DNA from: Amphiscolops sp. MND2022 | Lineage: Eukaryota | Assembly (NCBI GenBank): GCA_964187785.1 | Contig: OZ076409.1 | Coordinates: forward strand, 28,398,001-28,462,000 | DNA: 64,000 nt | Direction: 5' to 3' | In this document: positions 3,426 to 64,000 of the stretch, piece by piece | How positions within the stretch are numbered: position 1 is the stretch's first letter | Layout of the letters: each line of letters starts with the position of its first letter | Notes under the pieces: generated by a model | What the model saw: only the letters and a program-made list of their open reading frames with translations | What the model was told of the DNA's origin: nothing | Database searches by the model: none | Position numbers and translations under genes: made by a program

Positions 3426-3623
3426 CAGAGTTGGGACCGGGCTGGGCTTGTAAACGGGCCGGTCTTGTATTTCGATTGGTGAAGAACAAAAAGGGTCCAA
3501 ATTAAATTCATTTTCTGTCTATTAGTAGGAGTTTCGAAAGCATTGATCGGGGCTTGGACGGGGCGGGCCTGAATGTGACTGCGCCGGACCGGGCCTGGAT
3601 ATTTAGGCCCGCTTCCAACTCTG
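3426..3623. mobile_element. 198-bp hAT-type MITE
   Basis: TIRs CAGAGTTGG...CCAACTCTG. Perfect 8-bp TSD CTCGCGTT (3418-3425 and 3624-3631). GGGCC/CGGGC subterminal repeats. Confidence 0.9.
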
Positions 3624-4207
3624 CTCGCGTTTAACATGCACGCAAAACGTATGAGAAGTTTAACTGATGCAAGTTAAGGTGGCGAGATATGCCAACCGGT
3701 AGGAAGTTTGAGACAACAAAGCTTATAGAGCGAATATATTTTCTTTTCAAAAAAGCTTTTCAACAATTTTCGGAAATTAACGGTCGTAACAGAAATTTCT
3801 CTAGGGAAGTAAATTACATGATATTCACAGCACTTTTTGTAACATCAATTCGCAAAACTCTCGAGACGTAAGGATACCATTTCGTAGGAATAATTTTGCT
3901 CTCGGTAATTTTTGAAGAAGTATTTCAAAAATTACCAGCCCTTTTCTTCGTACCAAAAATTTTTTTTCGTACCAAGAGACATAAGTTACATGAAAATTTG
4001 CAGCTCTGCTTGGCGCATTGCTTCTTATATTCCCCGAGACGAAAAAATCCCTTATTGAAGCCTTTTTGTCACTCAGAAAAATTTTAGCAGAAACTTTGCG
4101 AAGTTTTCTGAAATTAGACAGAACAATTGTTTTAAAACATCAGTTTTATGGAAACTCTGAGAGCTTCTTATTTCTTCGATTCATTATTACCTTCAATTGG
4201 CTGAAGG

Positions 4208-4820
4208 TGTCGCAGGCTGCCGCATGCAATGGAAACTTGTATTCTATCTCTTACAACAACTACAACACTCTCCCTCGGACGATCCCGCTTGACTAAGGAA
4301 AATAGACGTGCCGTCCAAAAAGAACTGCAAACTTTGAATCTGGAACATTAGTGCTTTCAATTTGTTTTTTAAAACATGCTTGTAAATCGAATATAGTGTT
4401 TTTTTTCACGCAAATATTTGATACATTTGAAGATAATTGAACACCAAGGCGTACAGGTAAAGGAAACGTGTTCAAACGTTTCTTCGCCTGTCGCTGCGGG
4501 TAGGGCGTCCACTATGCATTTTATCCAATCAGCGGCGTTCACTTGATTAATGCTATACTTGATTGAATAAAAGGCCAAGTACGGCCATTCTACTTTGCTA
4601 GCGTACCACAGAGGGCGGCGGGACACTAAGTCTCAATTTGGACTAAAGGCGCTGTTTAGTAAATACCGCATTATAATTGAGCAGTAAGTTTTGATTATTT
4701 GATGATTTATTCAATATGTGATTTGTCCTGAGAATGTACAAATACCCAATAGTCATGTAAAATTTTATATGAAAAAGACAATCACATAAATCATGTAAAA
4801 ATCATTAAATTATACCCGCT
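4208..4820 (+). repeat. 5' LTR remnant of copy 1 (U3 part only; a deletion joins it to mid-gag)
   Basis: Starts like the 3' LTR at 16324. Gag homology resumes abruptly at about 4821 without PBS or gag leader. Confidence 0.7.
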
Positions 4821-5578
4821 TATGCAGACATTCAGGAACATAAACTCAAACAACCGTCAAACCTAAGAGGACGTGTTGGTCATATTCCGGCGAAAATATG
4901 TTAGGCCGGAATCACAAGCTACGGCAAAGCATAAATGGCATAGGCTCTTTTTCGATCCTATTACCATGGAAATGCCCGATTTCTTAGAAGAACTGAAGCA
5001 AGGCACCGAGAAAGCCTTTGGTGAAAACGCAAAAAGCATTATTGACAGCTTGTTGTATGCTAAACTGCCTCCAAAGTTGAAACAATCTGTCAACATGGCC
5101 TGTCTGCAGAATGGGACATATGAAGAGATCGTAGCTCATCTTGAAAGAGAGCAAGAACTCAACGCATTGAGGAATCAGATAACCTACCAATTTCCACAAT
5201 GGCCTCAGCGTCCTCAAGTAGCCGCATCTTGTTGTCCAATGGCCTTGAAACCAAAAAGGATGCCCAGTGCTCTTACTGTAAAGCAACAGGCTATTTCCGG
5301 AAAAACTGTCCAACGTTGAAGAAGAAAGAAATGGAGGAGAAACGTGGCAAAAGACCGCAGCGTCAAACATACCCACCATGTGAAACGTGTGAGAAAAAGA
5401 ACCACCCAGATGAAAGATGTTGGCAAGGCGCTGGTGCTCATCTTTTCCCGAAATGACCCAACTTGACGATAAAGCAAATGATGCCTCAAGTGATAAGGGA
5501 AAATCCAAGAAAGCAAATAATGCTGAAATGTCATCGTCAGGCTAATCAAACTCAAAAAAGCCTGATTCAAAAAGCTAA
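4821..5578 (+). pseudogene. gag: gag remnant, copy 1
   Basis: FRRKYVRPESQATAKHKWHRLFFDP...YAKLPPKLK, homologous to copy 2. Two zinc-knuckle-like motifs, CSYCKATGYFRKNC and CETCEKKNHPDERC. Frameshifted. Confidence 0.85.
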
Positions 5579-8500
5579 TTTTGCCACGACTCCAAACACA
5601 TAACTACATGTTGGTCCGACAGTATGTCATATCAGATACTCCGACAATCAAACTTCGCTAATTTCTCAAAGACACAAATGGCACCCCCTCAGTTGTCTGG
5701 CAGCAACAGAAGGAAAAAGCCTATATGAAGACTTATAAAATAGTACATAACGATTGCCCAGGCTCATACTATGAAATGGACTATACTAAAGACTGTGAAA
5801 CTCAATTTAGCCCTTTACAATTGGTCGAAGATTATAACTCTCAAAACATTGACCCCGAGAACGGAAAAAATTTGTATTGGGGTGACAAACTATATGATCA
5901 GGAAAATGTACAATTTAGTCATGACGACTATCCTTCAACAGACGACGAGGACGATCCAGCGATAAAGACAAAAAACTATCCGGGGCCCTCCTTGAACTTT
6001 GGCAGCCAAATTCAGAAGCGAATACCCCGGAGGAAATAGAAAAGTTTCATAGACAAGAAGTGCGCCAGGCTACAAACAGCCTCGTAGACGAGGCGGCCTT
6101 TTTGCACGTCCTCGTCACTAAGGAGGGAGAACCAGCAAACATTCCCTTTTCAACAAACCTTGGTCCTCAATTTAAACGACAGATGCTATACTTCCCGATG
6201 GACTTTAGGGAATTAACCTTAGACGGCTTAATAGACACTGGCCGCACATTTGCACGTAAATGCGTGGATGAAACACACGTGTTCACGTGTGCAACTTGCA
6301 TTGAATGCAGTTTATACGTACTATGCACGGTAGAGCTCAGTAATGATAACTAATTATTTATTGAATCATTGTTTACTTTGACTGGTTTATGATGCTGTGG
6401 TATGAATTAGAATTAAAATGAACACTGAGTTTTGAATGCATATAAACATGGTGTAAGTTAGTCAAAACTTTGACCACATTCCACTTTTCGGAAGTATAGG
6501 AGTCCCTCAATTTGCAAAAAGTGGAAGTTAGTCAACGTTTTGACTGACTTACGAAAAAGAGTATTTTTGGACTAACTTCCGCTTTTTTCTAATTACGTGT
6601 TTTGACTAACTTACACAATTTTCCATTACGCGCGTTGATTTTGCTAAACCGTTGAAGCATAGACCGTCTTGACTAACTTACGCTGAATGACCATTTTACC
6701 ATTTTACTCAGATTACGCTGCTTGACTAAAGGCAGCTTACCGGTACGTGTATCGTAATGGCGCCCACTCCAGTGCAATACCCGAAGCAGACCTCAGGAAA
6801 AAACGCCTACTAGCGCCTCAATTCATAATCAAAGAGGGACCTGCCCCATTATTTCAAATAACGGTCGCAAATGGAGATTTAGAATCACCAAAGAGTACCG
6901 TCGAATTAATGTTTCAAATGAGAGACATTGAGTTTCATGAACGTTCTATAGTAATGGAGAAAATTTCCAGCCCCATAATTGAATAATGTTCCTTCAATTG
7001 AACCACACAGTCTTAGACCTGCGCCAAGGTCTCCTCAACTTTCCTTATTTCTCAATGCAACTGACCACGACCACAAGTACTCAAATGTAATGGAACCCCT
7101 ACTCAGTCCTGAGGACGTGACGATTCCACCAAATGACCACGCGGTCATTACCATACAATCCCAAATTTATGCAGAGAACGCAGTCACAGGAATATTACAA
7201 CCTAGTGACGTTTTGCACGAAGAAGGCGACGTAACATTTTGCGCCGCATTTGTCACACTAAACGAAGGGACTATGGGCATACGCGTCAACTATTTCATTG
7301 ACCAACCTTACAAACTTGAAAAAGGATTGCATTTCGCAACTTTCTAAGTGATGACTCCTGAGCAAATGGAACACGTCAGACCATCAGACCCAGTGTCTAC
7401 CTGGCACTTACTAATCGAAAACCTAGAGGACGCTGTCTACTATATCAGCAGTCTTTTCAAAGCGAATCGGAACATTGACCAATACGAGCATTATTGGATC
7501 CTGACACATATACAAAAACAGCTACTTAGAGAAATGCGCAACTTGGAAGAAGCGGAAAAACTGAATCCGAAGGACGACGAAAAATCACGTCGCAAGCTTC
7601 TTAGCAATTTTGACTGGAAGGACTCAGTGCTATAACAGCATGGAATCATAGGAATTGAATCGCTATTAGTAGAAATCCATGACACCTTTGCACGTCATTG
7701 ATTCGACATTGGAATAAGAATTCACTGTCAAACTGACCGCTAGGTATGATTCACCAGCATACAGTCAAAGCTTGCATTACCCGATTAACTTAGTGGAGGA
7801 CATATTGGTTGAACTGGCGTCACTACATAAATATGGCATCAATTCAACTCTGCCATTTTTTGAATACGCGAGCCCTATATTTGCGCAGAAAAAACCCAAT
7901 GGGAAACTCAGACTACTAGTAGATCTGAAAAAGATCAATAATCTTATCTCAAGACGATTATATCAATAGTAATCATCCAGTCAGTACCCTGACTGACGCC
8001 GCGCAACATATACCCGGAAAGACACTTTTCTGTGAACTCGACTGTTCACAGGCCTACCATTGACTTCAAATGGCGGACCAAAGGTCTAAAACAATGCTAG
8101 CATTTAAACTTGCAAGCAGGACTTTTGCCTATAGAAGATTGACTCAGGGACTCAGCAGAGCCCTATCGGCCTTCTCCAGTTTCCTGAGGAAATACCTCAA
8201 ACGAGTTATAAAAGCATATCAATGCGCCCAATATGTCGATGACATTGACATTGCAGCTAACGACGTCGACCAACTTTTTAGAAACTTGAGGGCGACCTTT
8301 CAATGCATCAGAGAAACAGGATTAAAACTAACGATGCACAAGTGCAATTTCGTAGCAACTGAAATTGATTTCTTGGGGGAAGGACTATCACCCCAGAGAG
8401 TGCCAAGCCCCCCCCCCCAAAAAAAAATTACGAACTTCTTGGAAAAACAATCTTCCCGAAATCCAAGAAGGCCTAGCAACGTTATCTTGGTCTCCTAAAC

Positions 8501-11140: not shown

Positions 11141-14100
11141 TTATAAATAAAGAATTACTTCAACAAAGGACAAATTGTATAATATTTGACAGAGAAAAGC
11201 CAATGATGAAAGATGAAGGTACAAGTTTAAAGAACAATTGTACAAAATGTACATTTGGGACTTAGAAGTAGTCTGCTCGGACTCTTCCGGGACTTTATCC
11301 TTCTTTGCAGACTCTGTTGACCCAAAAGCAGTTTTCCGTTTCCCTTTCCCGGGGGACCACTTGTGTCGACTGCTGGTAGAGGGTGAACTTGAACCGGAGG
11401 CGAAACGACTCGAGGATGCTGCTTTAGGCTTCTGTGTCATGGATTTATGCTTTATGCAAAGGGTTCTGTAGAAATTGGCCTTGCCAAATACATCAACATG
11501 GGTCCAGGGATCACCTGCTACGTTACCAGAATTGAACTGTTCTTCTAGCTCACGAAATCTAGACAATGAACTCTCGTTAGTACAAACTGGAATGGAGTTT
11601 GGAACTCTAACCAAATAGAACTGTGCTGATAATATGACGTCTCCCTGCCTATGTGAATCAACATCTTGGAACTGAATGGAGGAAGCAAAGGGTTATCTTC
11701 AGTAAGGCACATGCAGCTTATTCGGAAAAGTCGGTAGAGATGGAGACGATTTCTGAGTTCAGGCATTGCCGACAATAGATCCACAATGTCGGTAAATCCT
11801 GCTGGGGAGTTTTTCAGGGAGGGATACATCTGGCGAGAGTGACCCACGAATTCCAGATACTAATCACGGCAGTCGTTTTTAGAAGATCCACCCAACCAAC
11901 CTCGGAGGCTGAAAATCTGGTATATTGTCGCGAAGCAAAATGTAGCTTGTTCTAAAGGTAGGATCAAGAGAATGTGGAGATCGAAACTGGCTATCACCCT
12001 GACGATGTCGGCATTTAAACTAATGTGGCCGAGCAAAAATACCATATAGCCCCGTGCCTTTGCAACGAACTTTTGTTTTGTGTCCTCAACCAATTCTGAA
12101 AAACTGGGAAATGAGCTTTCCCTGTCACTGTTGTCTCTCTTCACTTTGGCTGCCTCATCAATGTCCAATTTCAACCTCAATATGGTGAGCAAATCCCTCG
12201 AAGATAATTGACTAAGCAATCCATCGAACAGTCTAGATTTCCCACTAGGCTCTTCTCAAAACAAACGTTGTCTAAATAATGAAATGTTAACAATTAGAGA
12301 ATTCAACCTCTAGGTCCTTTGACGAAGTGGAACTCCTAGGAGAACCCTACTCAACCATGGAAATTGAAAGGAGATTTACTTACAATCAATAGTACACGAT
12401 CCTTCCAAAGAATTCCAATTTGATTGGGAAGAAGTCATCACTGATGATCTGCTACTCCTGGTTCTGAGGCTGAAAGGAAATAAGATTTGTCAATGGTTTT
12501 CAGGTCATGAGCATATAACGAACCATCTGGTAACAATACTGGTCAATGAAAATTCAATAACTTTGTTTTTAACCCCTTGCATCTCGTACCCATGTGCAAT
12601 CTTGGTGATGTGATCCCAGAAGGGCTTCCAATTAGTAATTATCTTGGAACAGATAATCGGTATGGTTCGAATCCGCAAGTCACAACTTGATATGACCTGG
12701 AAGCAACAATGACGTGGAACTGGTGTATAAGACACAACTAACTTCTAATCGTTGACACCAATACTAACTTTGGCTAGTTCAGGGGTATTACCGATTCAAG
12801 GCTCATCAAGAATATTGGCTAGATAGGCCACCAGGTACTTGAGTTGGATGTAGAAGTCTATCCGCCCAAACACGATTCCCTCACGTTTTAGCATACGCTT
12901 GTGTAGTGACAAGACTTTTTAGCCGAAAGGGTATGCAGTTTCCTTCTTCACCGAGCAGACTGCTCAACCGTCCGGAGGACTTCGTAATTGCACCCTGACA
13001 TACAGACAACCTGAGGTGCTGTCGAGAGGAAAGACAAGATTCTGGCTATCACAAGCAGCTGGTTTCGGACACGAATGGAGGCCAAGCTACAACGACAAAG
13101 TTGGAATTAGACAAGATCGTCTGATTTCCAGTAGCTCAAAGATGCGATGCCATGGCTCCCTTGTGGCTCAATTTCAAGAGAAATCAACACTGTCTCTTTC
13201 AGTGATTGGGCTACGTCTTCCATACCACGTAAGGAGACATGATGGAAGATAGCCTGAAACAGTTTAGATCCCTTAAAATCATGCAAAATCGAATGGTACA
13301 CAAAGGCTCACAGTCACCCTCACTTTAGCCTGGACTAGGAGCAATGGCCCGACAGGCCTCGGTCCAACTCTAGCTTCCCTTCTTTCGATGTCTATTTCTG
13401 TGGAAGGGGCATTGGTGTCCGAAACGTCACCTTGGTTAAAAGAAGATGCTCCGATTTCTTCATCGGACGCTAAGGCTCCGCTGGTGTACCCGTCAATGGT
13501 GTATCCTTCGCTCTCGGTTTCCCATTCAGAGTTTGTGGGGACGCCTCTAGTTGGATTTTCTCCCCTTATGAGAGTCTTTCTAAAATGGCCAGGTGTTTGA
13601 CCTCTTCCCCCATACACTGCCTGAAGAACAAGCGAACGCGTGCAAAGACAACTTGACAGTTTCGTCCGAAATGGTTTTGAGGACGGCGTGGATATGCGGT
13701 TCGCTGTATTCAATCGTGGAAGGTCCTCTGGGAAGCACGGTTGGGTAGACTTGAAAAAATGTTTCCGGAGAACGGTTCGGCCATTGGCAGAAAGTTGCTC
13801 TGGAAATTTGGTTTCTTTGGTTTGGGGGATGACATGGAAGCCCTTAACCCCTTTGTTGACAGCCTCACGCTCTTCTTCTGGAGCTGAAAAGAGGTCAGAA
13901 TCAGAATTCGCTATGCTGGAGGTTGGCCTGTTTGGCAAGCCATCGGCACAGGGGCTGCTATACAGGTCTTCTACCTCACTTGCATCGGTCTCAAAATAGT
14001 TCTTCTCTCGTTCGTGTGACCAATCAACAGGGCCCATATCAAACTGACTGGAGGTCCCCTATAACTCAGAACCGATTTATTGGGTATCAGTCCGACCAAA

Positions 14101-45789: not shown

Positions 45790-47305
45790 AGAAGAAGTCG
45801 CAGACCAAGACGCACTTCTTTCCATCCTTCGCCGTTTGGTATCAGTAGGGAGGGGCGTTAACGCTAACTCATCCACAACAGAATCTTTTGTCCACTGCGA
45901 GTGGAAGACTTCTTAGGGCCTGACAAAACGGCTCGATAGGAGGACTGCAATGATTTGTAGATTTTAGATCGACCAAAAGAATCAACATACTCCCAAGGGT
46001 CATAGGTGGGTGAAAAAGCTGTCCGTCCGAAGGAAGAGGAAAGGAGAGAAAGTTTCTCTAGATTAACATCATCATTGCATTGTGAGACTGAGCCAGAAAC
46101 TTGGCCCATGAAACTCTGACAGGGCAGTACTACATCCGTGAATCTACTCTGATGTCCCACAGTAGAAATTCTGTCAAGCGTGACATCGAGGTATGTAGGG
46201 CTGGGAGTAGTAATGCTCAGACAGCATAGCTTAAACAGGTAAAGGAGATGTTCTCTGTCCTGCAGGAAATCTAGGCCCATTAAGAACTCTATCAGGTCCC
46301 GGGTGGTACTAGTCAAATCGAAATCGGACCCATAACAGATTCTCAAGTGGTCGAGGAGCTGGGTATATTGGTCACGACAAAAGGATTCGTTATGTTTGAT
46401 GACCCCGGAACGAAGACAAAACTTTTGGTACAGCAAGTCAAATGTCGGAGCGCTGCATCCATGGGTTATCTCAACATATTGATCTGGTCGAAAGCTGCAA
46501 CACCTTTTATTATGTCTGCGCTGAGGCCTGTATGCCTCAATACTTCATTGATCAAGTATTGAAGGAAGTGGAGGCAATCACTAACAAAATCGGCTTTGAC
46601 CTTCTCAGCGGTCTTCAGTATGGCGGCCTTCTCCGATTTCTTCCCGAAGTGAGGCCCTTCAGCTTTGGCTTTGCTGGCATTGGCTACGTTGTTGGAAAGT
46701 TTGATACGAAGCATGAAATCTTCTGCTGTCATGAAGGTAGCATCACCCGTGTGGAAAGTTACTAGAAGGAACCAATCATTCTCTAGAGGGGCGGTATCAG
46801 GAGTGTAACTTCTGAGGCAGAGTTGATAAAGGAACCAGCTAGAGTCTCCGCACAGATAGAACGTGGCATCCCGCCTCTGCTGGAGATTCACCACAAAGCT
46901 AGACAAACCTACAAACACAGACTTAATCCTAATCAGGCCATTGGCGAACTCCTAACCCACTACTCTAAGGATACTAACTATCACTGACGTTCCGAGAGAA
47001 AAGCTCGAGCTTAACGACAAAGAATTCGTCGCAGATTAGTGTCCACTCGAAACTCTGTACCTGGAACATGAAACCCTAGTTAGAGCACCTGAACATCCAT
47101 ATGCAGCCTATAGGTGCTAGCATTCTACTAGGGGAAAGAGTCAAATTGATCGCAAATGAATGAAAGTTACTTACTCTGTCCCGAGACCCTTGTCCTACAT
47201 GCCGGGGAGCGTGCACCGTCAGGTAAAGGGTTACTGACTTCCCTTCTGTAACGAGCTCTCGGAAGAGTGTAGGGAGTCCCGAAATGTCCCATTTGCATGA
47301 AGTTA
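45790..47305 (-). pseudogene. C-terminal part of the antisense cargo gene, copy 2
   Basis: ADIIKGVAAFD, LYQKFCLR, CRDQY, HLLYLFKLCCL and YDPWEYVDSFG align with ADIVRVIASFD, IYQIFSLR, CRD*Y, HLYRLFRISCM and GDPWTHVDVFG in copy 1. Confidence 0.8.
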
Positions 47306-50189
47306 TCGCGAGAACATTCTTAATTTCCGAAGTTATCTCTTCTTTCACAGAGGCTCTCAAGCTTTCCAAGAGACTATTTTCAACTCTAGGGGATTTTGGT
47401 CTTGACGGACCGCAATGCTTACGTCCAGATCCGGGGAACAGTGATTTTCTACAACTATTGGCGAAACTAGACTTTCACTTACATTTTCACTGTTTTCTTG
47501 TTGGTTGTTTCTTCTTTTATGACTTCTTGTTGTTGACATGATGGGTGAAGAGATTGACTTTGAATTCTTATTCTGAACTGTATTTTCAACAAAGTTGATA
47601 ATTGAGATGAGAAATTGAAATATCGTAGTACAACTGATTTTCACAGGTGAAAAGACTGAGTCCCTCAACCTACAAAATGCATCGTATTTATACCCTCCTA
47701 ACATCATTTGATCACGACTATATTCATAATTTTCCTCAAACAATTAGTCTTTTCCCGTTTTTCCGGTGAAAAAAAATCATTACGATCCCAAATTTGCGTC
47801 GACATTTGGTCAAATTTTGAGACATGGCAATTCTAATATAGTATTAGTCATCAACTATGATCATATCTTTTCATTCCGGCGTCCTTTTGCTTCCTCCCAA
47901 GCAGGAAATTGATATTACTTTAGTCTGTCAAACCGGAAATGTTTCCCTGTTTTGCTGCTTTGGTTCGTAGGAAAATTGACGCGGAGATGATGCCGACGTG
48001 AACAACTAATACCTGATTTTGAATTTTTACTTAAGGAAAATGCTATGACTAATTCCTAAATTGTGGTTAATTAGACGATGCTAGGGAAGTATTTGGGTTA
48101 ACTAGAAGACAAATATTGTACTAGGAATAAGATAAACATTTACAATTATTAATACAGTAATTAGCACATTGGCAATAATTTTGGTCTGACGAGACAAGCA
48201 CGCCAAGTTTACAAACCAGAACTAAACAAAACAAAACTTCCAGTGGTGATTTCAAAAACATGAATTGGTAGCTCATTTGGAACTAATATGCAACTGAAGG
48301 GGGTTTTCTAGCAAAGTTAACAAGTCTTTGAGTTTCTCCAATTTATATGTCAGCGAGGTGACAACGTCATACAAAAATAAGCTGACAAGTTGAGAATACA
48401 AACTGTTATCAAGCAACGGGTCCTCCTCCAGCTTTGGCTTTGCTGGCATTGGCTACGTTGTTGGAAAGTTTGATACGAAGCATGAAATCTTCTGCTGTCA
48501 TGAAGGTAGCATCACCCGTGTGGAAAGTTACTAGAAGGAACCAATCATTCTCTAGAGGGGCGGTATCAGGAGTGTAAGTTCTGAGGCAGAGTTGATAAAG
48601 GAACCAGCTAGAGTCTCCGCACAGATAGAACGTGGCATCCCGCCTCTGCTGGAGATTCACCACAAAGCTAGACAAACCTACAAACACAGACTTAATCCTA
48701 ATCAGGCCATTGGCGAACTCCTAACCCACTACTCTAAGGATACTAACTATCACTGACGTTCCGAGAGAAAAGCTCGAGCTTAACGACAAAGAATTCGTCG
48801 CAGATTAGTGTCCACTCGAAACTCTGTACCTGGAACATGAAACCCTAGTTAGAGCACCTGAACATCCATATGCAGCCTATAGGTGCTAGCATTCTACTAG
48901 GGGAAAGAGTCAAATTGATCGCAAATGAATGAAAGTTACTTACTCTGTCCCGAGACCCTTGTCCTACATGCCGGGGAGCGTGCACCGTCAGGTAAAGGGT
49001 TACTGACTTCCCTTCTGTAACGAGCTCTCGGAAGAGTGTAGGGAGTCCCGAAATGTCCCATTTGCATGAAGTTATCGCGAGAACATTCTTAATTTCCGAA
49101 GTTATCTCTTCTTTCACAGAGGCTCTCAAGCTTTCCAAGAGACTATTTTCAACTCTAGGGGATTTTGGTCTTGACGGACCGCAATGCTTACGTCCAGATC
49201 CGGGGAACAGTGATTTTCTACAACTATTGGCGAAACTAGACTTTCACTTACATTTTCACTGTTTTCTTGTTGGTTGTTTCTTCTTTTATGACTTCTTGTT
49301 GTTGACATGATGGGTGAAGAGATTGACTTTGAATTCTTATTCTGAACTGTATTTTCAACAAAGTTGATAATTGAGATGAGAAATTGAAATATCGTAGTAC
49401 AACTGATTTTCACAGGTGAAAAGACTGAGTCCCTCAACCTACAAAATGCATCGTATTTATACCCTCCTAACATCATTTGATCACGACTATATTCATAATT
49501 TTCCTCAAACAATTAGTCTTTTCCCGTTTTTCCGGTGAAAAAAAATCATTACGATCCCAAATTTGCGTCGACATTTGGTCAAATTTTGAGACATGGCAAT
49601 TCTAATATAGTATTAGTCATCAACTATGATCATATCTTTTCATTCCGGCGTCCTTTTGCTTCCTCCCAAGCAGGAAATTGATATTACTTTAGTCTGTCAA
49701 ACCGGAAATGTTTCCCTGTTTTGCTGCTTTGGTTCGTAGGAAAATTGACGCGGAGATGATGCCGACGTGAACAACTAATACCTGATTTTGAATTTTTACT
49801 TAAGGAAAATGCTATGACTAATTCCTAAATTGTGGTTAATTAGACGATGCTAGGGAAGTATTTGGGTTAACTAGAAGACAAATATTGTACTAGGAATAAG
49901 ATAAACATTTACAATTATTAATACAGTAATTAGCACATTGGCAATAATTTTGGTCTGACGAGACAAGCACGCCAAGTTTACAAACCAGAACTAAACAAAA
50001 CAAAACTTCCAGTGGTGATTTCAAAAACATGAATTGGTAGCTCATTTGGAACTAATATGCAACTGAAGGGGGTTTTCTAGCAAAGTTAACAAGTCTTTGA
50101 GTTTCTCCAATTTATATGTCAGCGAGGTGACAACGTCATACAAAAATAAGCTGACAAGTTGAGAATACAAACTGTTATCAAGCAACGGG
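46660..50189. repeat. Tandem duplication, 1761-bp unit (46660-48420 and 48429-50189) with 8-bp filler TCCTCCTC
   Basis: Near-identical copies at offset 1769. One substitution seen (GTGTAACTT vs GTGTAAGTT). Confidence 0.95.
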
Positions 50190-51598: not shown

Positions 51599-53154
51599 TG
51601 TCGCGACTTTGTTCGCTTGTATAAGAGTCTACTGAACTCTCTCTTGACATCTGTTTACTATTTCACTGTGTAAAACAATTTTGGGTCAATTTTCCCACGT
51701 TTTCTTGGCATTTTCTGCTTCGGGGTTCCGTTGTAGCCCACTGTACCTTCTGTCCTCCACGGTGAAATTGGTCGTCCTTGGGCCTACATGTATCCCGTTG
51801 GACCCTCGGACCGCCATGGTAAAATTAGCTCTCCCCTGCATATCTAACGTGTTTTGAATAGAAGGAAGTACTGTTTCAGCTATTGCAGTTGTAGTTGCAC
51901 TTTGTATCTGAAAATTTAAGCTAGTTTTGATTTCATTAGGTCTCCTTGACAATGGGTTAGAAATTTCCTCGTTGATTATTCTAGTTGTTTCAAGAGTTAT
52001 TTCACTGTTTTCTCTACAATTGTTGAGTAGTGACCTAAAGTCTTCACCTGTTACATTTGAATTTTGTTGAGGCCTGCTTGACTGTGAGTCCGAATTTAGT
52101 TAGTTTTCACTTAGATAATTTCCCTCATTATTTCTTGAATACCTTCCTAACATTACATCAACATTTTCTACATCAGAACTCATGTCTAAATTGTCTTGGA
52201 CACCTTTCCTTAGCCTTTTGCTTTCTAGTAGAAGGCCTTGGAGAAATGATATCATGTCAAATATTGAATTCAAAAACGATAAGTACAAGTCAATGAGAAG
52301 GTTAAGTTAATCACAGTCTCGGATTCAACAGATTGATATTAGCAATTTGTTTGTAGGCAAATTCTTTTCAAAAGGATCCCCAGAGACCTCCAAGCCTCCT
52401 ATTTATAGTTGGGAGGAGATGAGAACGCCGAAATTGCGTGTCATGTTACTAAATACAAATATACCTGTGACTAAAAATAGCATCCCGTAGGGTTACATCA
52501 CCCTGACGTCATCACATCGAATAAAGGGGACTTTACGGTTAAGCCGACAAGGTGGGAAAACAGTTACAACACTTTATATGTATACCCAACACTAATCTAC
52601 AACACTACATGTGCACTAAAGATGAAATTTCATGCTAGCACAGTAAATAACCGTAGCGGACTTTAAGTTCGTGAAGCTACAATCATATATACTACCGGCG
52701 GCAGTCGCGTACTAATTCCACCGTGGCAGACATTCCGTCCACGGAGCTACATACATATACTGCGTTTTGATTGGTCAATAAAATTAGGACAGCGAGTACA
52801 ATTAGCTAGAAGATGCGTTCATTTGAAAACGTTTCCTCTTCCGCATCTAATTGCATTTAACTAATCATTCAATTTTACATTCGAATTATCGAATCACATC
52901 AAATTCCTAGCAAAGAAACAGGAACCTGACTATTTTCTAATCAGTTAAAAACAGCCCGATAATCTAAAATTAAAATTTGTATCGTGGCCGTATGGACCAT
53001 AGGTCTTTTACGGTGAAAATATAAAACAAGAACAATAACGATAAATTTACGTGTGGCACAATGTACTATTAGTCTTTCGTCGTCAAAATGGGTAGGACTC
53101 CGGGTGAGGGTTAGTAATATATCCTTCTAGCTGAGATTTGGTCAGCCTGCAACA
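51599..53154 (-). repeat. 3' LTR of copy 3 (1556 bp)
   Basis: Minus strand GGAG|TGTTGCAGGCTG...GTCGCGACA. TATAAATA at ~52400-52407. Decayed leader (M)PSTRKQKAKER...SSDVENVDVMLG from 52238. Confidence 0.85.
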
Positions 53155-53868
53155 CTCCACTAGGGATGAAAAGTACTGTCCCCTGATCCATTCCGGCAAG
53201 AGAAGAAATTCGTCGTCTTTGTCGTTCGTCATATCTTTCTTCTTGACAGGTTGTTGATTCCACATATCCCAACATAGCAGTCTCTTTTATCTGTTCATAG
53301 GTCCCACAGCACACAATACAGTCTCCATATTGCGCTTGATTAGGCTGTCCACATTGTGACGATACTCTCACACTAATTCCTTGTATATGCGCATTGCGTT
53401 GGAGATGTTGATGTAGTCGGTCTGGTGTAGTGTATTCAAAGGCACTGTAAGTCGGCCCCCGTTCGCTAGGAGGAGGAGATAACGACGTATCAACTTCCCA
53501 CAGTATTTAATTGGAGGACTGTTGCTTTGAGTCGCTGTACTCGGACCAGCTAACATGTCACGTGGGTTCGACTGATTGTCCACTAGCTGCATCATGCTGT
53601 CAAAGTCATTCCATGGAAAATTGGGGTACTCATCGTTGACACACTGTGATGTGTCTACCGTCATTGCTCGTCCTGCCACTAGGCCTTGGGGTTGTATGGG
53701 CACATGTCGATAGCATGCAGTTAACTATATATTGCTGTCATCTGAGGCGCTACTCAAAACTTCCACCGATTGTACGTCTACGTCCATCTCTTCATCAGAA
53801 GAGTAATAGCTGGGGCTCACCGCAGGATCAGAGAGATCGTCCAAATGGAAATGCAGATTTATTTCCAT
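53083..53868 (-). pseudogene. ORF-X of copy 3 (first duplicate)
   Basis: MEINLHF...YSSDEEMDVDVQSVEVLSSASDD...GDCIVCCGTYEQIKETAMLGY...RRR...GMDQGTVLFIPSGVLQA. Frameshifted. Confidence 0.75.
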
Positions 53869-56491
53869 TTTGAATCGATTTAAGAAGAGTTTTCTAGCAA
53901 TCTTCAAGAATCGATTGAGCAACTGGATTTCGCAGTTAGGTTTAGTAGAATACTCCCATCTCGCCCACCGGACCTTGGGTCTTTCCTCGTTTCGCGGGAA
54001 ATTTTAGGCGGGGAAACATTGTCAGCAGTTTACCAGTAATTTTCCGTAAAATTTCCATTTAGGTAATATGAGCCACTTCACACATATGTTGATGAGTCTT
54101 AACCTAAGTTAACAGACCGTCAAGTGCCTTTTGATCTATCTATTTATCAATCAAAGAGGTGTTAATCACCTCTGTATGTGCTTATCAGCACTAACTATCG
54201 GTAAATAAAAACACTATCAAAGACCTTCGGTCCGCATGGCTACATCAACTGAATTGACCAATGAGGTTCCTTTGATGAATGAAAGATGGAAGTCTGATGA
54301 AAATGAATGAAAATGACAATTTCATCTAAATTAATTCTAATCTACGAAGCAAACTAATCTGTAAAATGAAGTAAAAGCATGAATTTCACTGGTAGTTTCC
54401 ATCCATGGTAAAGGGGATTATGATTAAGTAATGATACACAGGGTACAAGAAATAAGTAGTAAATAATTATATATGAAAGACCTAATTATAAGGCCACGAC
54501 GTCCATTTATAATTTGAATAATTAACCGTTTTCAGGACTTTTTTCTAGAGTGATCCATCTTTTAAAGTCTGGCAAACTCGGAAAGTGAAAGTAATAATAG
54601 TACAATTCAAATGTATGTCACTGTCTCTGTATCACAGGATTCTACAATTTCAATTCTTTATATTTTGAGTTGCATATTATTTCCCATTGAGACTCATTAT
54701 TTTGGACGATAATTTCAGACTTCAAGCCACGACGGCCACAGAAGTGTCTAAGTAGTCAGATGATAATTCTGAAAAGGAGCTTGTCATACCCAGCAGTCTA
54801 TCACCCAGATTCGCATCCCCAGTCATTAGGTTTGGACAGAAGAATTCTGCTTTTCCGTCATGGAAATAGCATCAAGTTGGTTCTTTGAATGAGGCTCGAC
54901 TAAACTTGATCAAGGTTTTGGCCTGACTATTTTACTTCCGCCATCGTGAAATGTTTTCACATTGTGTTAAATAAACTGAACTTAACTTCCTGAAGATTTT
55001 AAAAGCGGTAAGAATGACTCTTGCAGGAAGTGAACCGCGCGAAACTATTCCTTTCAATTTAGGAAAAAAGGTCAAACGGCCAACCAGACCAATCATTAAC
55101 TGGTGATAGCACTACTAGTGACGACCTCGAAGTTACTAATCCTAAAATGGCCGAAAAACTGTCAGCCTGAATTGTTTCTGGTGATACAAGTGGAGCTCTC
55201 CGAAGTGCTGACCACTTCTCAAGCATCGGATACTCCTACGGAAACATGAGCATGATAGAATTACCGATTTTCCGCATGCTGCTGCCGAGACTAGTTGAAG
55301 TCGTGACGACCAGAAGTCCGACCCCGTTGTTTTCGATGCTGGTAGTCCAGGTGGTCAGACCTTAGCTGCCCTCAAGGCCGAAGCTATAAAAGACCAGAAC
55401 AAACGCTCTCGTAATAAGCGTGGGTGTTTCATCCAGCCAACTACAGCTCAAGGGACGAGAAGGAAGGTGACCGGTTCATGCAAGATCATGAAGGAGGCAT
55501 ACTTTAAAGGTATGGAGTGGACCCGAACCTTTGTATCTGGACCTGTCGACCCTCGTTAGAACCAGTACAAATTTTATTGTCAGAATTGTAAGGCCAACAT
55601 TTCAATATACGGGAAGGGAGCTAGAGAGATTCTGCGTCACCACTCCACCGAAAAGCACCTCCGAAAGGACCAAAGGTGGAGCTATGGGTACCTGTACAAG
55701 GTTAACCCCATCACGAAAACCAAGATCCATCAAGTCAGGGGAAACGATGGCAAGATATTGACTCCCTATCAGTAAGAGTTGGAACTTCCAAACTTTATAC
55801 ATGCCTCCTATTTATAGTTGGGAGGAGATGAGAACGCCGAAATTGCGTGTCATGTTACTAAATATAAATATACCTGTGACTAAAAATAGCATCCGGTAGG
55901 GTTACATCACCCTGACGTCATCACATCGAATAAAGGGGACTTTACGGTTAAGCCGACAAGGTGGGAAAACAGTTACAACACTTTATATGTATACCCAACA
56001 CTAATCTACAACACTACATGTGCACTAAAGATGAAATTTCATGCTAGCACAGTAAATAACCGTAGCGGACTTTAAGTTCGTGAAACTACAATCATATATA
56101 CTACCGGCGGCAGCCGCGTACTAATTCCACCGTGGCAGACATTCCGTCCACGGAGCTACATACATATACTGCGTTTTGATTGGTCAATAATATTAGGACA
56201 GCGAGTACAATTAGCTAGAAGATGCGTTCAATTGAAAACGTTTCCTCTTCCGCATCTAATTGCATTTAACTAATCATTCAATTTTACATTCGAATTATCG
56301 AATCACATCAAATTCCTAGCAGAGAAACAGGAACCTGACTATTTTCTAATCAGTTAAAAACAGCCCGATAATCTAAAATTAAAATTTGTATCGTGGCCGT
56401 ATGGACCATACGTCTTTTACGGTGAAAAAATAAAATAAGAACAATAACGATAAATTTACCTGTGGCACAATGTACTATTAGTCTTTCGTCG

Positions 56492-57277
56492 TCAAAATGG
56501 GTAGGACTCCGGGTGAGGGTTAGTAATATATCCTTCTAGCTGAGATTTGGTCAGCCTGCAACACTCCACTAGGGATGAAAAGTACTGTCCCCTGATGCAT
56601 TCCGGCAAGAGAAGAAATTCGTCGTCTTTGTCGTTCGTCATATCTTTCTTCTTGACAGGTTGTTGATTCCACATATCCCAACATAGCAGTCTCTTTTATC
56701 TGTTCATAGGTCCCACAGCACACAATACAGTCTCCATATTGCGCTTGATTAGGCTGTCCACATTGTGACGATACTCTCACACTAATTCCTTGTATATGCG
56801 CATTGCGTTGGAGATGTTGATGTAGTCGGTCTGGTGTAGTGTATTCAAAGGCACTGTAAGTCGGCCCCCGTTCGCTAGGAGGAGGAGATAACGACGTATC
56901 AACTTCCCACAGTATTTAATTGGAGGACTGTTGCTTTGAGTCGCTGTACTCGGACCAGCTAACATGTCACGTGGGTTCGACTGATTGTCCACTAGCTGCA
57001 TCATGCTGTCAAAGTCATTCCATGGAAAATTGGGGTACTCATCGTTGACACACTGTGATGTGTCTACCGTCATTGCTCGTCCTGCCACTAGGCCTTGGGG
57101 TTGTATGGGCACATGTCGATAGCATGCAGTTAACTATATATTGCTGTCATCTGAGGCGCTACTCAAAACTTCCACCGATTGTACGTCTACGTCCATCTCT
57201 TCATCAGAAGAGTAATAGCTGGGGCTCACCGCAGGATCAGAGAGATCGTCCAAATGGAAATGCAGATTTATTTCCAT
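56492..57277 (-). pseudogene. ORF-X of copy 3 (second duplicate)
   Basis: Duplicate of 53083-53868. Confidence 0.75.
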
Positions 57278-58199
57278 TTTGAATCGATTTAAGAAGAGTT
57301 TTCTAGCAATCTTCAAGAATCGATTGAGCAACTGGATTTCGCAGTTAGGTTTAGTAGAATAGTCCCATCTCGCCCACCGGACCTTGGGTCTTTCCTCGTT
57401 TCGCGGGAAATTTTAGGCGGGGAAACATTGTCAGCAGTTTACCAGTAATTTTCCGTAAAATTTCCATTTAGGTAATATCAGCCACTTCACACATTTGTTG
57501 ATGAGTCTTAACCTGAGTTAACAGACCGTCAAGTGCCTTTTGATCTATCTATTTATCAACCAAAGAGGTGTTAATCACCTCTGTGTGTGTTATCAGCACT
57601 AACTATCGGTAAATAAAAACACTATCAAAGACCTTCGGTCCGCATGGCTACATCAACTGAATTGACCAATGAGGTTCCTTTGATGAATGAAAGATGGAAG
57701 TCTGATGGAAATGAATGAAAATGACGATTTCATCTAAATTAATTCTAATCTACGAAGCAAACTAATCTGTAAAATGAAGTAAAAGCATGACTTTCACTGG
57801 TAGTTTCCATCCATGGTAAAGGGGATTATGATTAAGTAATGATACACAGGGTACACGAAATAAGTAGTAAATAATTATATATGAAGACCCTAATTATAAG
57901 GCCACGACGTCCATTTATAATTTGAATAATTAACCGTTTTCAGGACTTTTTTCTAGAGTGATCCATCTTTTAAAGTCTGGCAAACTCGGAAAGTGAAAGT
58001 AATAATAGTACAATTTAAATGTATGTCACTGTGTCTGTATCACAGGATTCTACAATTTCAATTCTTTATATTTTGAGTTGCATATTATTTCCCATTGAGA
58101 CTCATTATCTTGGACGATAATTTCAGACTTCAAGCCACAACGGCCACAGAAGTGTCTAAGTAGTCAGATGATAATTCTGAAAAGGAGCTTGTCATACCC

Positions 58200-61000
58200 A
58201 GCAGTCTATCACCCAGATTCGCAACCCCAGTCATTAAGTTTGGACAGAAGAATTCTGCTTTTCCGTCATGGAAATAGCATCAAGTTGGTTCTTTGAATGA
58301 GGCTCGACTAAACTTGATCAAGGTTTAGGCCTGACTATTTTACTTCCGCCATCGTGAAATGTTTTCACATTGTGTTAAATAAACTGAACTTAACTTCCTG
58401 AAGATTTTAAAAGCGGTAAGAATGAGTCTTGCAGGAAGTGAACTGCGCGAAACTATTCCTTTCAATTTAGGAAAAAGGTCAAACGGCCAACCAGACCAAT
58501 CGTTAACTGGTGATAGCACTACTAGTGACGACCTTGAAGTTACTAATTCTAAAATGGCCGAAAAACTGTCAGCCTGAATTGTTTCTGGTGATACAAGTGG
58601 AGCTCTCCGAAGTGCTGACCACTTCTCTAGCATCGGATACTCCTACGGAAACATGAGCATGATAGAATTACCGATCTTCTGCATGCTGCTGCCGAGACTA
58701 GTTGAAGTCGTGACGACCAGAAGTCCGACCCCGTTGTTTTCGATGCTGGTAGTCCAGGTGGTCAGACCTTAGCTCCCTCAAGGCCGAAGCTATAAAAGAC
58801 CAGAACAAACGCTCTCGTAATAAGCGTGGCTGTTTCATCCAGCCAACTACAGCTCAAGGGACGAGAAGGAAGGTGACCGGTTCGTGCAAGATCATGAAGG
58901 AGGCATACTTTAAAGGTATGGAGTGGACCCGAACCTTTGTATCTGGACCTGTCGACCCTCGTTAGAACCAGTACAAATTTTATTGTCAGAATTGTAAGGC
59001 CAAAATTTCAATATACGGGAAGGGAGCTAGAGAGATTCTGCGTCACCACTCCACCGAAAAGCACCTCCGAAAGGACCAAAGGTGGAGCTATGAGTACCTG
59101 TACAAGGTTAACCCCATCACGAAAACCAAGATCCATCAAGTCAGGGGAAACGATGGCAAGATATTGACTCCCTATCAGCTAGAGTTGGAACTTCCAAACT
59201 TTATACATGTCGAGTTAGTCGAGATTGGACAAAAGCTTCCTTACTACGACGAGTATATGTTTGTATGGACTACATGGCGTCTTCTTCAGAAAACAGAGCT
59301 CGTGTTCAAATGTCAGTCCTCGGCCAGTTCCTACCGTTTTTTAGTGATTTTGAAGTGCTGAAAACTTTCTGGAACGACGTAGGAGTCATTGTTAACCATC
59401 AGGCTCTCTTCACGGACTTCAACTGGAGGAGAGAACGATTGACTGTAAGTATTTCCTCAAAACTATTCCGAATTATACAGCTCATAGGGATTCGGTAACA
59501 ACATTCGAAAGGTTGCAGAGTAACTTCTTTTTCTTAGGTGTTGTTCCATCACATATTCCTGGAGCTCATTAATGATTTCGTTGCATACTCTACATTGCCA
59601 ATGGAGAGTATGCAATCGAGTTTGCAAGTGACGGTGCCTTCTTGCGTGCATTTGTACGAATTTGGCGTGAAGACGAACCTTGTCGGGTATTTTGAAGCGG
59701 ACTGGGAGGCTGCAGGGCCAGACTGATGCCGAAATTTGTTTGATTTTTTACAGCAAGGGCGCAATTTCTACCAAACCCTAATTAATCAGTTGCACGGGCG
59801 GTAGTGTGCGGACCATTCAGTTGATGGACCTGAGCCCATACAGTTCCTTCAGTGTGCAGATTCCTCCCTGAATTTAAGAGTTGTCTCTGCCACAGTTGAT
59901 GCACCGAAAGAGCCAGAGCGTCTTTGGACGGGTGGACTTCTTTTCCACTCTACGTTACCTAGTCGTTTCTCTGGGAGGCACTCTGGAACTAGGCTGAGTC
60001 CTGCTTTCTCCGGAATTGTCTAAGGTACGTTGCGTCTGGTGTTTATCATCTTCCTTCCTCTAAGTTACATGATTCCAATGGCATTTAACCCTCTTGGCTT
60101 AATAATGAGCGGTGACTCCTAGCACGTCCAATTTCAAATTCCAGGCCATCCGAACATACCAATTGGACATCTGTGGACTGCCCTTTTTATGTCTTGAACT
60201 TCTTGACAATTGGCCCAAAGTACACTCCTACCTTAGCAAGAAGAGATGCAAGGAGTTCGTAAGCAGGTAACCTTCTTGTTTTTCTTGTAGCTCCAGGTAC
60301 CTCAAGTCCATATAGGCAAAAATTTCCAATTGTTCTAGCCACAAAACCTGGAGTGGTATGAAGTTTACGACAGTCTCTTCCCCCGTCGACTCGAACTGTT
60401 TTATCGCCTCGTACAGGATTGTAAGTGGAGTTCTTATTGCATCGGCTGTTATTATGTTGTTCAGAATTCACTCTAGCTTCCTTTTTTAGACACTAACAGT
60501 TTTACTCTAAATCTGAAGTCGCAACGACACAGAGGCTTTCATGTCTACAAAGAGTTGTGTCAGTTCTTATTCAAACTTGGTCGAAGGTGTATTCGTCCCA
60601 GTAGTATTCCGGCTGACAATGACAACCAGGGGATATTCCAATTCTCCTTCCCTGACGCCAAAGCCTTGGTTGTTGACGACTTTATCACCCGCTCCAAACT
60701 TGCAGCTCGACTTGATGTCGGATGCAAGCAGGAAGCCGAAAAGGAACGTGATGAAGGGGAGAAGTGGGTATGCGGCCTATCTCCTGGGAGCAACCCAAAA
60801 GCTCAACCGGTTCACACCGATATCGTGAGAGGACTCGGGTCATTTGATTTAGAGATACTTCTGGTGGACCCTATGGAACAAGCCTCTTACTGTTTTAAAT
60901 AGCTTTTGTCCAGTTTTAGGACTCCGTGGGGGGTTAGTAATATCTCCTTCTAGTGACAATTGGTGAAAATTGTCGTCGCAGGCGGTAGCCTGCGACCTCC
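58200..61000 (+). pseudogene. Antisense cargo gene of copy 3 with BED-type zinc finger and two GT-AG introns (5' part duplicated at ~54800-55802)
   Basis: FYCQNCKAKISIYGKGAREILRHHSTEKH at 58978-59064. Introns 59445-59537 and 60025-60144. DIVRGLGSFDLEILLVDPMEQASYCF at ~60820-60898. Boundaries approximate. Confidence 0.78.
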
Positions 61001-62405
61001 CATAATGGCAATAACATCAGATTGGGTTTTCTAATTGTTAATGTCAAGCTTGATCAGGACTCCATTTTGACCAGTTAACTTCCTCCATCGTGAAACAAAA
61101 ACACGTCGTGTGAATATTCTGATTTTACACCTGCTTCCGGTGTCTTAAGCAGTACGACGGTTAGTTTTGCAGGAACTGAACCGCGCTTGTTCATATTTTT
61201 CTGTTCAGATAACGAACAAGATGACCAACCATCTCAAGTAACAGAAGAGGCGATGGAAGAAGTACCAATTACCATCGTCACTCCTACTTCTGGAGAACAC
61301 CTAGCAGGACTCTCGGTCGAGTTAGCCGCATCACAGGAGGTGAACACTGCCAAAGGGAGCGCTCACATTTTCAGCAGCAGTGGGTCGGAAGAAAGCTTCA
61401 CTGCTTACTTCACAAGGAAAATAGAATTTTTGGGTAGCAATCAAGAAATTTCGTCTTCGGAAGGCCCGGTCTTCTTTCCCAGAGCAGTTCGGAAGTGCCA
61501 GTTCTAGTGAAGGCATTAACATATTCACTTCTGTTAATGCCGACAGTTTTACTGTCACCACTTTAAGGGCCAGTTCCTACAATTGTTTTCCTAGATTCTC
61601 CGGTACTACCTTTGCAATCCACTCTTAGAGACCGTAAGAAGATGGCGCGAGTAAGAACTGAACTTCCTTAGACCGATGCTGTTCTTCAGCTTCGCGTTGC
61701 AAGTGGCTTCTCTCCCTATTGGGCTCTTCCGATAAATGATAGCCATTTTTCATCGACCGACAAGTCAACGTTACACCTATTCCTTGTTGAAGAAGCGAGG
61801 CTCCCCAAAGTCTACTTCAGCCGAAGCCTTGATTTCCCCAGTTAGGTTAGGTATAGCATGATGTATACTGACGACGAGTCTATCGACGTCACCCTAGAGG
61901 ACCTGCCCAATCAAGATGCTGGCCCTACACCCCTTTCTATTAGCAGTAGAGAGATCATCAGTCGTTTTTCAAAGAGATTACTCACATCAATCACCCTGAA
62001 GGGCATGCAATTTTTGCCTTTACGCAGGCACAGATTGGACAAATCCTGAGAATGGTCGCAGATGAATGTAGAGCCAGCCAACTTAACGTAGATAGTTCTG
62101 AAGCTCCGGGACATTCCGACAGATCTAGCAATGCGCTCATTCTTTCAACACCGCCTGACACTGTAACTGAGGTTGGTTCTGAGAGATCAGCTTTTACTAG
62201 GTGTATCGAGACTAGTCGTGGACTCAGAAGCGATGATGATTTACCGGCTTTCTCAGACCTTGGACGGGGCCGAGTCATAGCAATTACTGTGAGTGAATTT
62301 CTCGCCATATCGAAACTCAGCAGCAAATTGGAGGTTGCCTGCAAACTCAGAGTCGAAAGGGACCGACGAGAGAAGAAAATTGATCAAATTTGATCAGAAA
62401 ATTGA

Positions 62406-63310
62406 CCCGGGTTTCCCGACCAGGCCGATCATAATCTGACCATATTATGGCACCATAGAAATCATACAAATTTCCTTACTATGATCTTGCTATGATCGGC
62501 CTGGAATCATATATGGTCCAGAGTATGATCGGCCTGGAATCATATATGATCCAGAGTATGATCGGCCTGAAATCATATATGGTTCAGAGTAGGGTCAGCC
62601 TGGAATCATAATTTTTTTAAATATATATTTTTTTAATTTTCAAACAAAAATTTTCAAATATTGAGAACAGCCAGCTTTATAGGCTGAGGGCAATGGAGCC
62701 ACATTCGACCTTTGGTATCTGCGAACGATACATTGCAGGTCAGAACTCCGTTAAGCTCTAAGCGGAGTTAAAAACAAACTATAGTAACTCAATTTGTTCT
62801 CAGCCACTCATTTGTTAATAACTAACTCTTTTGTTATAGCAGTACCCACTTTGCAGTATGATTTTCGATTATTTCGAGAAAAATTACCAATAATTCAGCA
62901 AAAGATGCCCAAAATTGATGATTGCTGCCTTGTTTTCAATTTGGTGATTTTATTGGACATTTGGTTGAGGAATATCTTGTAATTTCATCAGTGTATGCGT
63001 TAATTGACTACATTATCCTAATTTGCTTTTTATGGCTCCAGGCTGACCATACTCTGGGCCATAAAGGTTTATGATTCCAGGCTGATCATAGACTGAACCA
63101 TATATGGCCCAGAATATGGTCAGGCTGGAACCATAAACTTTGCTTTTTTATGGTTCCAGGCTGATCATAGACTGGACCACATATGTCCAGAGTATGGTCA
63201 GCCTGGAACCATAAACCATTATGGTCCAGAGTATGATCAGCCTGGAATCATACTGTGAGTATGATGGCAGAGTATGATTGACCCGTTTTTGTATGGGAGG
63301 GAAACCCGGG
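62406..63310. mobile_element. CMC/EnSpm-type MITE
   Basis: TIRs CCCGGGTTTCCC...GGGAAACCCGGG. Perfect 2-bp TSD GA. 33-bp subterminal repeats (ATGATCGGCCTGGAATCATATATGGTCCAGAGT) in both orientations. Confidence 0.92.
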
Positions 63311-64000
63311 GAGGCTTTCAGCCTCGAAACGGTCACTGGACGGAACAATGATGAGGTTGGGCGATTAGCCCTAGTTACGTCACCCACTTTTTGAACGAGA
63401 CTCAATCACGTAGGCCTCACCAGCAGCAATATCAAGGTATCGGGGGCATTCGACATCAACGTCATCCTCGAGGGACCGATTGACAGTCAGTTGTGTTAGC
63501 CTGCTTTTCTCCCATTACCGCCTCCGAGGACATTTTCACATTGAACAAGAAATATCTTGTATTGAAGAGTACCAGTCAGTCGCTTGTTGATTAACTGAGG
63601 CAAAAGTATTTAGAAATGTTACAGCCTACCTTGTTCGTGGTACATTTCCGCATGGAACAACGAGCCCTTCGCAAGGAGCATATCTTATTTAGGCTGTTTA
63701 AACTGGCTTGTCGTTGCCTTAAAGAGCTTTTCCAGGTGTTACCGCTGGTCTTTTTCGGTTCCGTGAAGACTGAGAATCCCACCAGCAGATTAATTGACTC
63801 GATACAGCCATATTTCAAGAATGTTCCTCACAGTATAGAAGCTATGACAACTGACCAATCTGTATCCCGCTCTCTGCAGCTCGAGCCTGTTTTTTGGCAA
63901 TCGCGGGTTTTCCGACCCTTACAGTCCCTGGTCCTTTCTGTGGCCTCCGACGGACGAGGTCCTCCTAAATCTTTGGGAGTACCTGTCACAGTCCGCGCCC

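Follow-up and report, generated by a model that had tools for sequence, protein, structure and literature searches.

An intron-bearing antisense gene with a predicted hAT transposase-like fold in Ty3/gypsy retrotransposons of Amphiscolops sp. MND2022

Gene copies in the window

The window, that is, the whole stretch of DNA analysed, comprises 64,000 nucleotides of contig OZ076409.1. It contains four copies of a gene that is carried in antisense orientation by a family of LTR retrotransposons and is designated here as the cargo gene (Table 1). Copy 3, at 58.4–60.9 kb, consists of five exons with GT..AG boundaries. FTDFNWRRERLT of exon 1 ends at 59444 and is followed by a GT donor (59445), VLFHH opens exon 2 at 59538 directly after AG, and YAIEFASDG and LPFLCLELLDNWPKVHSYL lie in exons 2 and 3. 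The original prediction had listed these peptides, and they were recovered in the claimed order, spread over the exons. The zinc finger that it had described, C-x2-C-x16-H-x5-H, was present in the translated + strand. Cargo profiles matched the window exons with E-values down to 1e-105; these matches and the GT donors exclude chance, and the motifs and splice sites of copy 3 are real.

Table 1 Cargo gene copies and neighbouring features in the window.
Feature	Position	Strand	Comment
Copy 1, cargo remnant	11333..13762	-	Antisense to gag-pol at about 4.8-11.1 kb
hAT-like fragments	23.2-24.4, 30.7-31.4 and 34.6-34.9 kb		Ordinary BED-finger type, unrelated to the cargo; weak zf-BED, E 0.03
Copy 2, cargo remnant (exons 4-5)	45888..47071	-	Antisense to gag-pol at 39.5-45.5 kb; part of the remnant recurs at 48.4-48.8 kb
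Tandem duplication, 1.77 kb	46656-48420 / 48425-50189		99.9% identity; truncates copy 2
3' LTR of copy 3 host element	51599..53155	-	Inner edge approximate; 66-78% to LTRs of L031, L035, L039, L047
Tandem duplication, 3.4 kb	52391-55803 / 55800-59209		98.5% identity; adds part of a second exon 1 (about 55.0-55.8 kb)
ORF3, broken	53087..54011	-	Element sense strand, enters 3' LTR; repeated at 56496-57420
Copy 3, cargo exon 1, decayed	58422..59444	+	Basic stretch, then C2H2 finger, then conserved helical region; Ser-rich N-terminal region lacks about 1.1 kb
Copy 3, C2H2 finger in exon 1	58984-59064	+	C-x2-C-x16-H-x5-H
Copy 3, cargo exon 2	59538..60024	+	Frameshifted, 4 stops
Copy 3, cargo exon 3	60145..60266	+	Helical; matches start of Hermes insertion domain
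Copy 3, cargo exon 4	60339..60420	+	
Copy 3, cargo exon 5	60490..60931	+	Internal gap, 3' end missing
Copy 4, more divergent cargo remnant	61160..63906	+	Large internal deletion; gag-pol just right of the window, - strand (L049)
Insert in copy 4	62406-63310		Inverted ends, internal 33-bp tandem repeats (MITE-like)

The copy 3 gene is broken: exons 1 to 3 change frame, six in-frame stops occur in the pieces that were read, and the gene breaks off at about 60931 against a fragment of a different element. No gag-pol belonging to copy 3 was found within the 64-kb window. Copy 3 belongs to a high-copy Ty3/gypsy family, of which it is a decayed and truncated example. The C-terminal helix reported previously for copies 1 and 2 was confirmed as an HLLYLFKLCCL-type sequence in copy 2 (ORF 45864-46544, - strand) and as a related form in copy 1. 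A relative also lies in the fourth copy at 63.6–63.9 kb, and the helix is absent from copy 3, whose gene ends upstream of it.

The 1.77-kb tandem duplication at copy 2 may be an assembly artefact. No target duplication was seen around the MITE-like insert in copy 4.

The host retrotransposon family

Searches of the same 1.07-Gb genome each returned 3,545 to 7,276 first-look candidates, which are not copy numbers, and 100–150 of these were scored per search. Each of the 13 large contigs carried listed matches, and by eye these did not cluster noticeably. For the study of the elements, 28 matches were picked for their long open frames and taken with flanks. The cargo was antisense, with pol-derived sequence just past its 3' end, in every sampled copy (9/9, 8/8 and 11/11; 28 in total). 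LTR pairs were 94–100% identical in 23 of the 26 copies with 20-kb flanks, and a typical element was about 15.6–16.3 kb long. The element ends were TG..CA, a PBS was found in 9/9, and 5-bp target duplications flanked eight of nine elements, one boundary being mis-set. Pfam matches and the order of tblastn hits placed gag, PR, a dUTPase-like region, RT, RH and INT on the element sense strand; the dUTPase-like region between PR and RT gave weak Pfam matches. With an LTR pair, target duplication, PBS, gag and PR-RT-RH-INT all found, the carrier is a Ty3/gypsy LTR retrotransposon.

The sense strand carries a further frame, ORF3, of about 240–350 codons (for example L039:2120-3097 (-)). It is acidic with CxxC in clades 1 and 2 of the cargo (see below), takes a different, basic form in clade 3, and matched no Pfam family. 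ORF3 crosses the position of the polypurine tract and continues into the 3' LTR. A short purine run precedes the 3' LTR in clade 1, and no polypurine tract was evident there in clades 2 and 3 (L083, L169, L177, L171, L173 and L175), although these elements look young.

In L039 (702-1367 (-)), L040 and most fetched pairs, the start of the gag frame lies several hundred bases into the 5' LTR, and the frame stays open across the PBS; the 3' LTR therefore contains a second copy of the first ~220 gag codons. L035/L036 and L083/L084 contain PR-dUTPase-RT-RH as an internal tandem repeat. Three further observations concern neighbouring sequences: a SET-domain ORF lies directly past a break in the pol of one element (L042:2602-3579 (-)), a BEL/Pao element is nested in a family member (L096:576-5675 (-)), and a fragment of a protein-primed PolB (Polinton-like) lies beside another (L176:7401-8318 (+)).

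Exon structure, clades and selection

The cargo gene has up to five exons, hence up to four introns, and encodes a protein of ~1,300 aa. Its N-terminal part is a low-complexity region of about 500 Ser-rich residues followed by a basic stretch; in the predicted structure of P0062, the Ser-rich region was mostly disordered except for one confident helical pair. Exon 5 of unbroken copies encodes ~380 aa. All 65 finger-pattern matches among the fetched loci shared the 16/5 spacing, and the four finger ligands were at least 90% conserved across 25 rows. GT stood at the next codon after exon 1 in 74/74 ends found in the fetched loci, many of which are related copies; 55 of these read GTRAGT. Introns 1 and 3 were common to all three cargo clades. 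Exact absence of a single intron was observed for intron 2 (L045 and clade 3) and intron 4 (L037, L043 and L045), and intron 1 was exactly absent from P0062, as would be expected from occasional copying of spliced RNA.

The cargo forms three clades, with clade 3 exon 2 only ~16% identical to the others. Groups in the RT/RH tree broadly track the clades (support 98 for clade 2 and 86 for clade 1); clade 3 was unresolved in this tree, which has a very long outgroup. Among seven clade-1 elements, INT and RT were 83–99% identical, whereas the cargo was 59–70% (96% in one pair) and the LTRs 62–86% identical. Since INT or RT reaches 92–99% identity where the cargo is 59–70% identical, pol has been exchanged among subfamilies with distinct cargo.

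The finger and the following helices were the most conserved part of the cargo. dN/dS was 0.02–0.15 for the finger region, exon 2 and exon 5 in estimable pairs (dS > about 0.15); the values come from 12 pairs, many with saturated dS, and rows misaligned by frameshifts (ex1N e81/e93 and several ORF3 rows) were left out. Near-identical pairs gave 0.3–1.8, and one finger value was 0.27. A search of protein representatives gave 867 matches at E<=0.001, of which the best 150 resemble the family's own fragments. Two database proteins had a best scored match of 29% in this genome, which suggests that they belong to other hosts, although a closer copy may lie among the unscored candidates. Judged by its aligned copies, the cargo is a real, conserved gene with splicing signals and under purifying selection.

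Predicted fold and probable hAT ancestry

The first structure model (P0062; pLDDT 53.6) had low confidence in exon 2, and a structure search with it matched nothing. The model of exons 2 and 3 of L175 (6215-6832) reached pLDDT 81.3 and pTM 0.49 and showed an RNase H-like core followed by helices; in relatives of copy 3, exon 2 was predicted to form this core (helix, three strands, helix, strand, helix). Foldseek placed Hermes at ranks 1–10 (E 5.9e-4 to 1.1e-2, about 204–219 columns). VIA aligned residues 1–206 of the model to Hermes 152–350 (about 180 residues), while the other listed rows spanned just 64–97 residues; its Z for Hermes (5.6–6.1, rmsd 7–10 A) was tied with actin, Hsp70 and kinase cores. 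In a viral library, the top query TM-score among the listed rows belonged to a Pandoravirus hAT protein (0.34, E 0.058). With clade-1 exons 2 and 3, the ten best family-bearing matches by language-model features in the ESM Atlas, scoring up to 0.86, were all DUF4371 or FAM200-ZBED5 RNase-like and shared a family or clan. As predicted by the model, exons 2 and 3 are an RNase H-like core with a helical insertion whose nearest structure is Hermes.

Searches by sequence gave no such signal. Profile tests with zf-BED, DUF4371 and Dimer_Tnp_hAT had been proposed, and all were negative by HMM and HH methods: Pfam found no hAT, BED (PF02892) or DUF4371 match in any cargo part, although the same profiles do match hATs of the same genome. 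PDB sequence and profile searches with the cargo gave no match. Cargo HMMs missed the hATs of the same genome, to which no sequence similarity was detectable, and hhalign scores between them equalled those of reversed controls, the hAT profiles being shallow. A rare DUF4371-type hAT of this genome (L124; 3 matches) is the type nearest to the cargo in the Atlas, and no direct similarity between the two was detected. A PF14291 search of the genome gave no match; its control likewise gave none.

The claim of a DNA-transposase fold was supported by predicted structure and Atlas features, with an RNase H-like core, Hermes nearest by Foldseek and hAT RNase-like families in the Atlas. The claimed hAT order held for the finger, helices, core and helical insertion. 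The C-terminal half had no tool support as hAT: the Atlas gave no hAT signal for exons 4 and 5, neither Pfam nor the Atlas matched the C-terminal dimerisation domain (PF05699) in the cargo, and the helix pattern there was read by eye. We consider hAT ancestry of the whole cargo protein highly likely.

Missing catalytic residues and terminal inverted repeats

CxxH and RW are names of hAT transposase motifs. Catalysis by Hermes requires D180, D248 and E572 (PMC2533014). We compared the corresponding positions of the cargo in a register set by strand pattern and alignment end-points rather than by residue-level superposition. The first-Asp site (column 30) held Ala in 25, Glu in 12 and Val in 8 of 52 rows. 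At the second-Asp site (columns 88–89), Gly occupied column 88 in 55/55 rows and Cys, Ser, Ala or Gly occupied column 89. No Asp was found at columns 29, 30 or 87–90 in 52–55 rows; column 28 was Glu in 38/53 rows, not in clade 3. Past the LxCL helix, where ERxFS would lie, 57 rows showed no conserved Glu. The CxxH site had His in 43/55 rows, without Cys. The RW motif was absent from the cargo alignment; a Trp present in 52/55 rows lies upstream. The hATs of the same genome keep D, D, RW and ER, and carry CxxH as well. The statement that the first Asp, RW and ERxFS are unrecognisable in the cargo was thus upheld by the aligned rows, and catalysis was probably lost.

No TIR pair around the gene was shared by four elements, those shown being only short, chance-like pairs, and no TIRs with an 8-bp target duplication surrounded the gene in any of the four. 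The similarity to hATs extends beyond a generic finger, and both the DDE triad and flanking TIRs are absent. With the build of a hAT transposase but no DDE, RW or TIRs, the cargo is a hAT derivative and not a hAT.

Proposed origin and function

The proposed domestication by a retrotransposon agreed with the fixed antisense position, low dN/dS, missing DDE and lack of flanking TIRs. We regard it as likely that the cargo is a DDE-dead hAT transposase which the retrotransposon has retained. A Ty3/gypsy lineage would long ago have acquired a hAT DNA transposon, antisense, between pol and the 3' LTR; the terminal repeats and DDE site would then have been lost and the gene retained under purifying selection. 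Since the packaged RNA is the opposite strand, the cargo introns would persist through retrotransposition. From the integrated element, the cargo would be transcribed from its own promoter and then spliced. Its putative plan, a Ser-rich low-complexity region, a basic stretch, a zinc finger joined to a helical domain, and an inactive RNase H/insertion scaffold, resembles the build of a DNA-binding regulator. The gene is presumably expressed and its product presumably binds DNA; in the nucleus, it may keep its own family transcribed or unsilenced.

Given a hAT origin, activation or anti-silencing of its own element family has a little under an even chance, and we favour it over integration tethering and over repression or decoy action. 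Two results count against a regulator: no repeated short motif stood clearly above shuffles in eight elements, and LTR identity did not strictly track cargo identity. The full scenario is more tentative, namely a stable class I/class II hybrid in which a whole DDE-dead hAT was domesticated as a subfamily-specific anti-silencing or activating factor whose diversification goes along with that of the LTR region as pol is exchanged, helping to explain expansion to thousands of copies.

With the same hAT origin, the protein might instead tether or target the integration complex, binding element cDNA or host chromatin and steering nuclear entry or insertion sites. The finger, the basic stretch and the retention of a full transposase scaffold, which would be suited to holding DNA ends, agree with such a role, and nuclear roles have been proposed for plant antisense ORFs (PMC7264820). 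However, the swapping of pol among subfamilies means that cargo and integrase form no fixed pair, and the spread of listed matches over the large contigs also speaks against targeting; we consider this role unlikely.

It is improbable that the cargo derives from a different protein with an RNase H fold, encoded by a host gene or belonging to another DDE superfamily, and that the Hermes match reflects only a common core and helices. Foldseek and the Atlas both ranked hAT first on clades that are ~16% identical, Hermes alone aligned over the whole model among the listed rows, and the order of finger, helices, core and helical insertion fits hAT.

Dead transposases can act as dominant negatives. 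A hAT-derived cargo could limit its own element as a repressor, or act as a decoy against hAT transposases or silencing factors of the host; hAT elements are numerous in the same genome, with at least 150 scored PF05699 matches. Yet the cargo has diverged so far that no similarity to the sampled hATs is detectable, and the great abundance of the family, with its many near-identical copies, also speaks against this role; we give it little probability.

An ordinary nested, decaying hAT insertion or a functionless antisense frame would agree with the broken state of all four window copies and the dN/dS of near-identical pairs, but is ruled out for the family by selection and position: the position is fixed in 28/28 copies of all three clades, splice sites are conserved, dN/dS between subfamilies is low, and 4/4 elements showed no TIR pair. 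We regard this reading as very improbable.

Comparison with known systems

The DDE-dead hAT derivative proposed here resembles Hermes and other hATs in the order of its parts, with a C2H2 finger and helical region ahead of the RNase H-like core and a helical insertion after it, the DUF4371, ZMYM1/FAM200-like branch being nearest by Atlas features. Unlike them, it lacks D-D-E, CxxH, RW, TIRs and detectable sequence similarity, has a long Ser-rich N-terminus and travels inside an LTR element.

SLEEPER is reportedly a host-domesticated transposase, grouped with FAR1 and MUSTANG. A preprint describes TnpA (Spm), VANC (VANDAL), FAR1 and MUSTANG as transposase-derived, sequence-specific regulators without catalytic residues; it also states that cognate copies can be activated by transposases and that TnpA originated from a transposase (bioRxiv 10.64898/2026.08.24.746577). 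The cargo is probably likewise a transposase-derived protein without catalytic residues, and by analogy it may be a regulator. TnpA, VANC and domesticated transposases serve a DNA transposon or host, whereas the carrier of the cargo is a retrotransposon; the words 'Retrotransposon' and 'LTR' were absent from the main text of the preprint (bioRxiv 10.64898/2026.08.24.746577).

Antisense ORFs of plant Ty3/gypsy elements (Grande gene23, RIRE2 and Retand TRP28/PF04195) lie between pol and the 3' LTR and are conserved in most copies; DNA binding has been suggested for them, and how conserved antisense genes of LTR retrotransposons arose and what they do is described as an open question (PMC7264820, PMC11963269). 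The cargo is also antisense and in the same place past pol in the sampled copies. TRP28 (PF04195) gave no match in Pfam searches of the cargo parts. The 2020 review states that similarity data do not support an origin by TE insertion for the plant ORFs (PMC7264820). In contrast to these ORFs, which have no traced origin, the cargo shows a predicted DNA-transposase fold and up to four introns. Ty3/gypsy elements with dUTPase from planarians (Burro), rotifers and fungi resemble the family in the dUTPase-like region between PR and RT and in extra ORFs downstream of pol; the portion of that report consulted describes no antisense transposase-derived gene (PMC6431247). Our literature search by title and abstract, mostly without subscription papers and repeat databases, found no LTR element with a conserved transposase-derived gene.

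If true, hAT ancestry would trace an antisense accessory gene in an LTR element back to a DNA transposase, and would add a retrotransposon to the hosts and DNA transposons in which transposases have been domesticated. The family also illustrates that an abundant repeat gene can escape Pfam and sequence searches. With thousands of candidates, three clades and naturally occurring recombinants between pol and cargo, it lends itself to a comparative test of the regulatory hypothesis.
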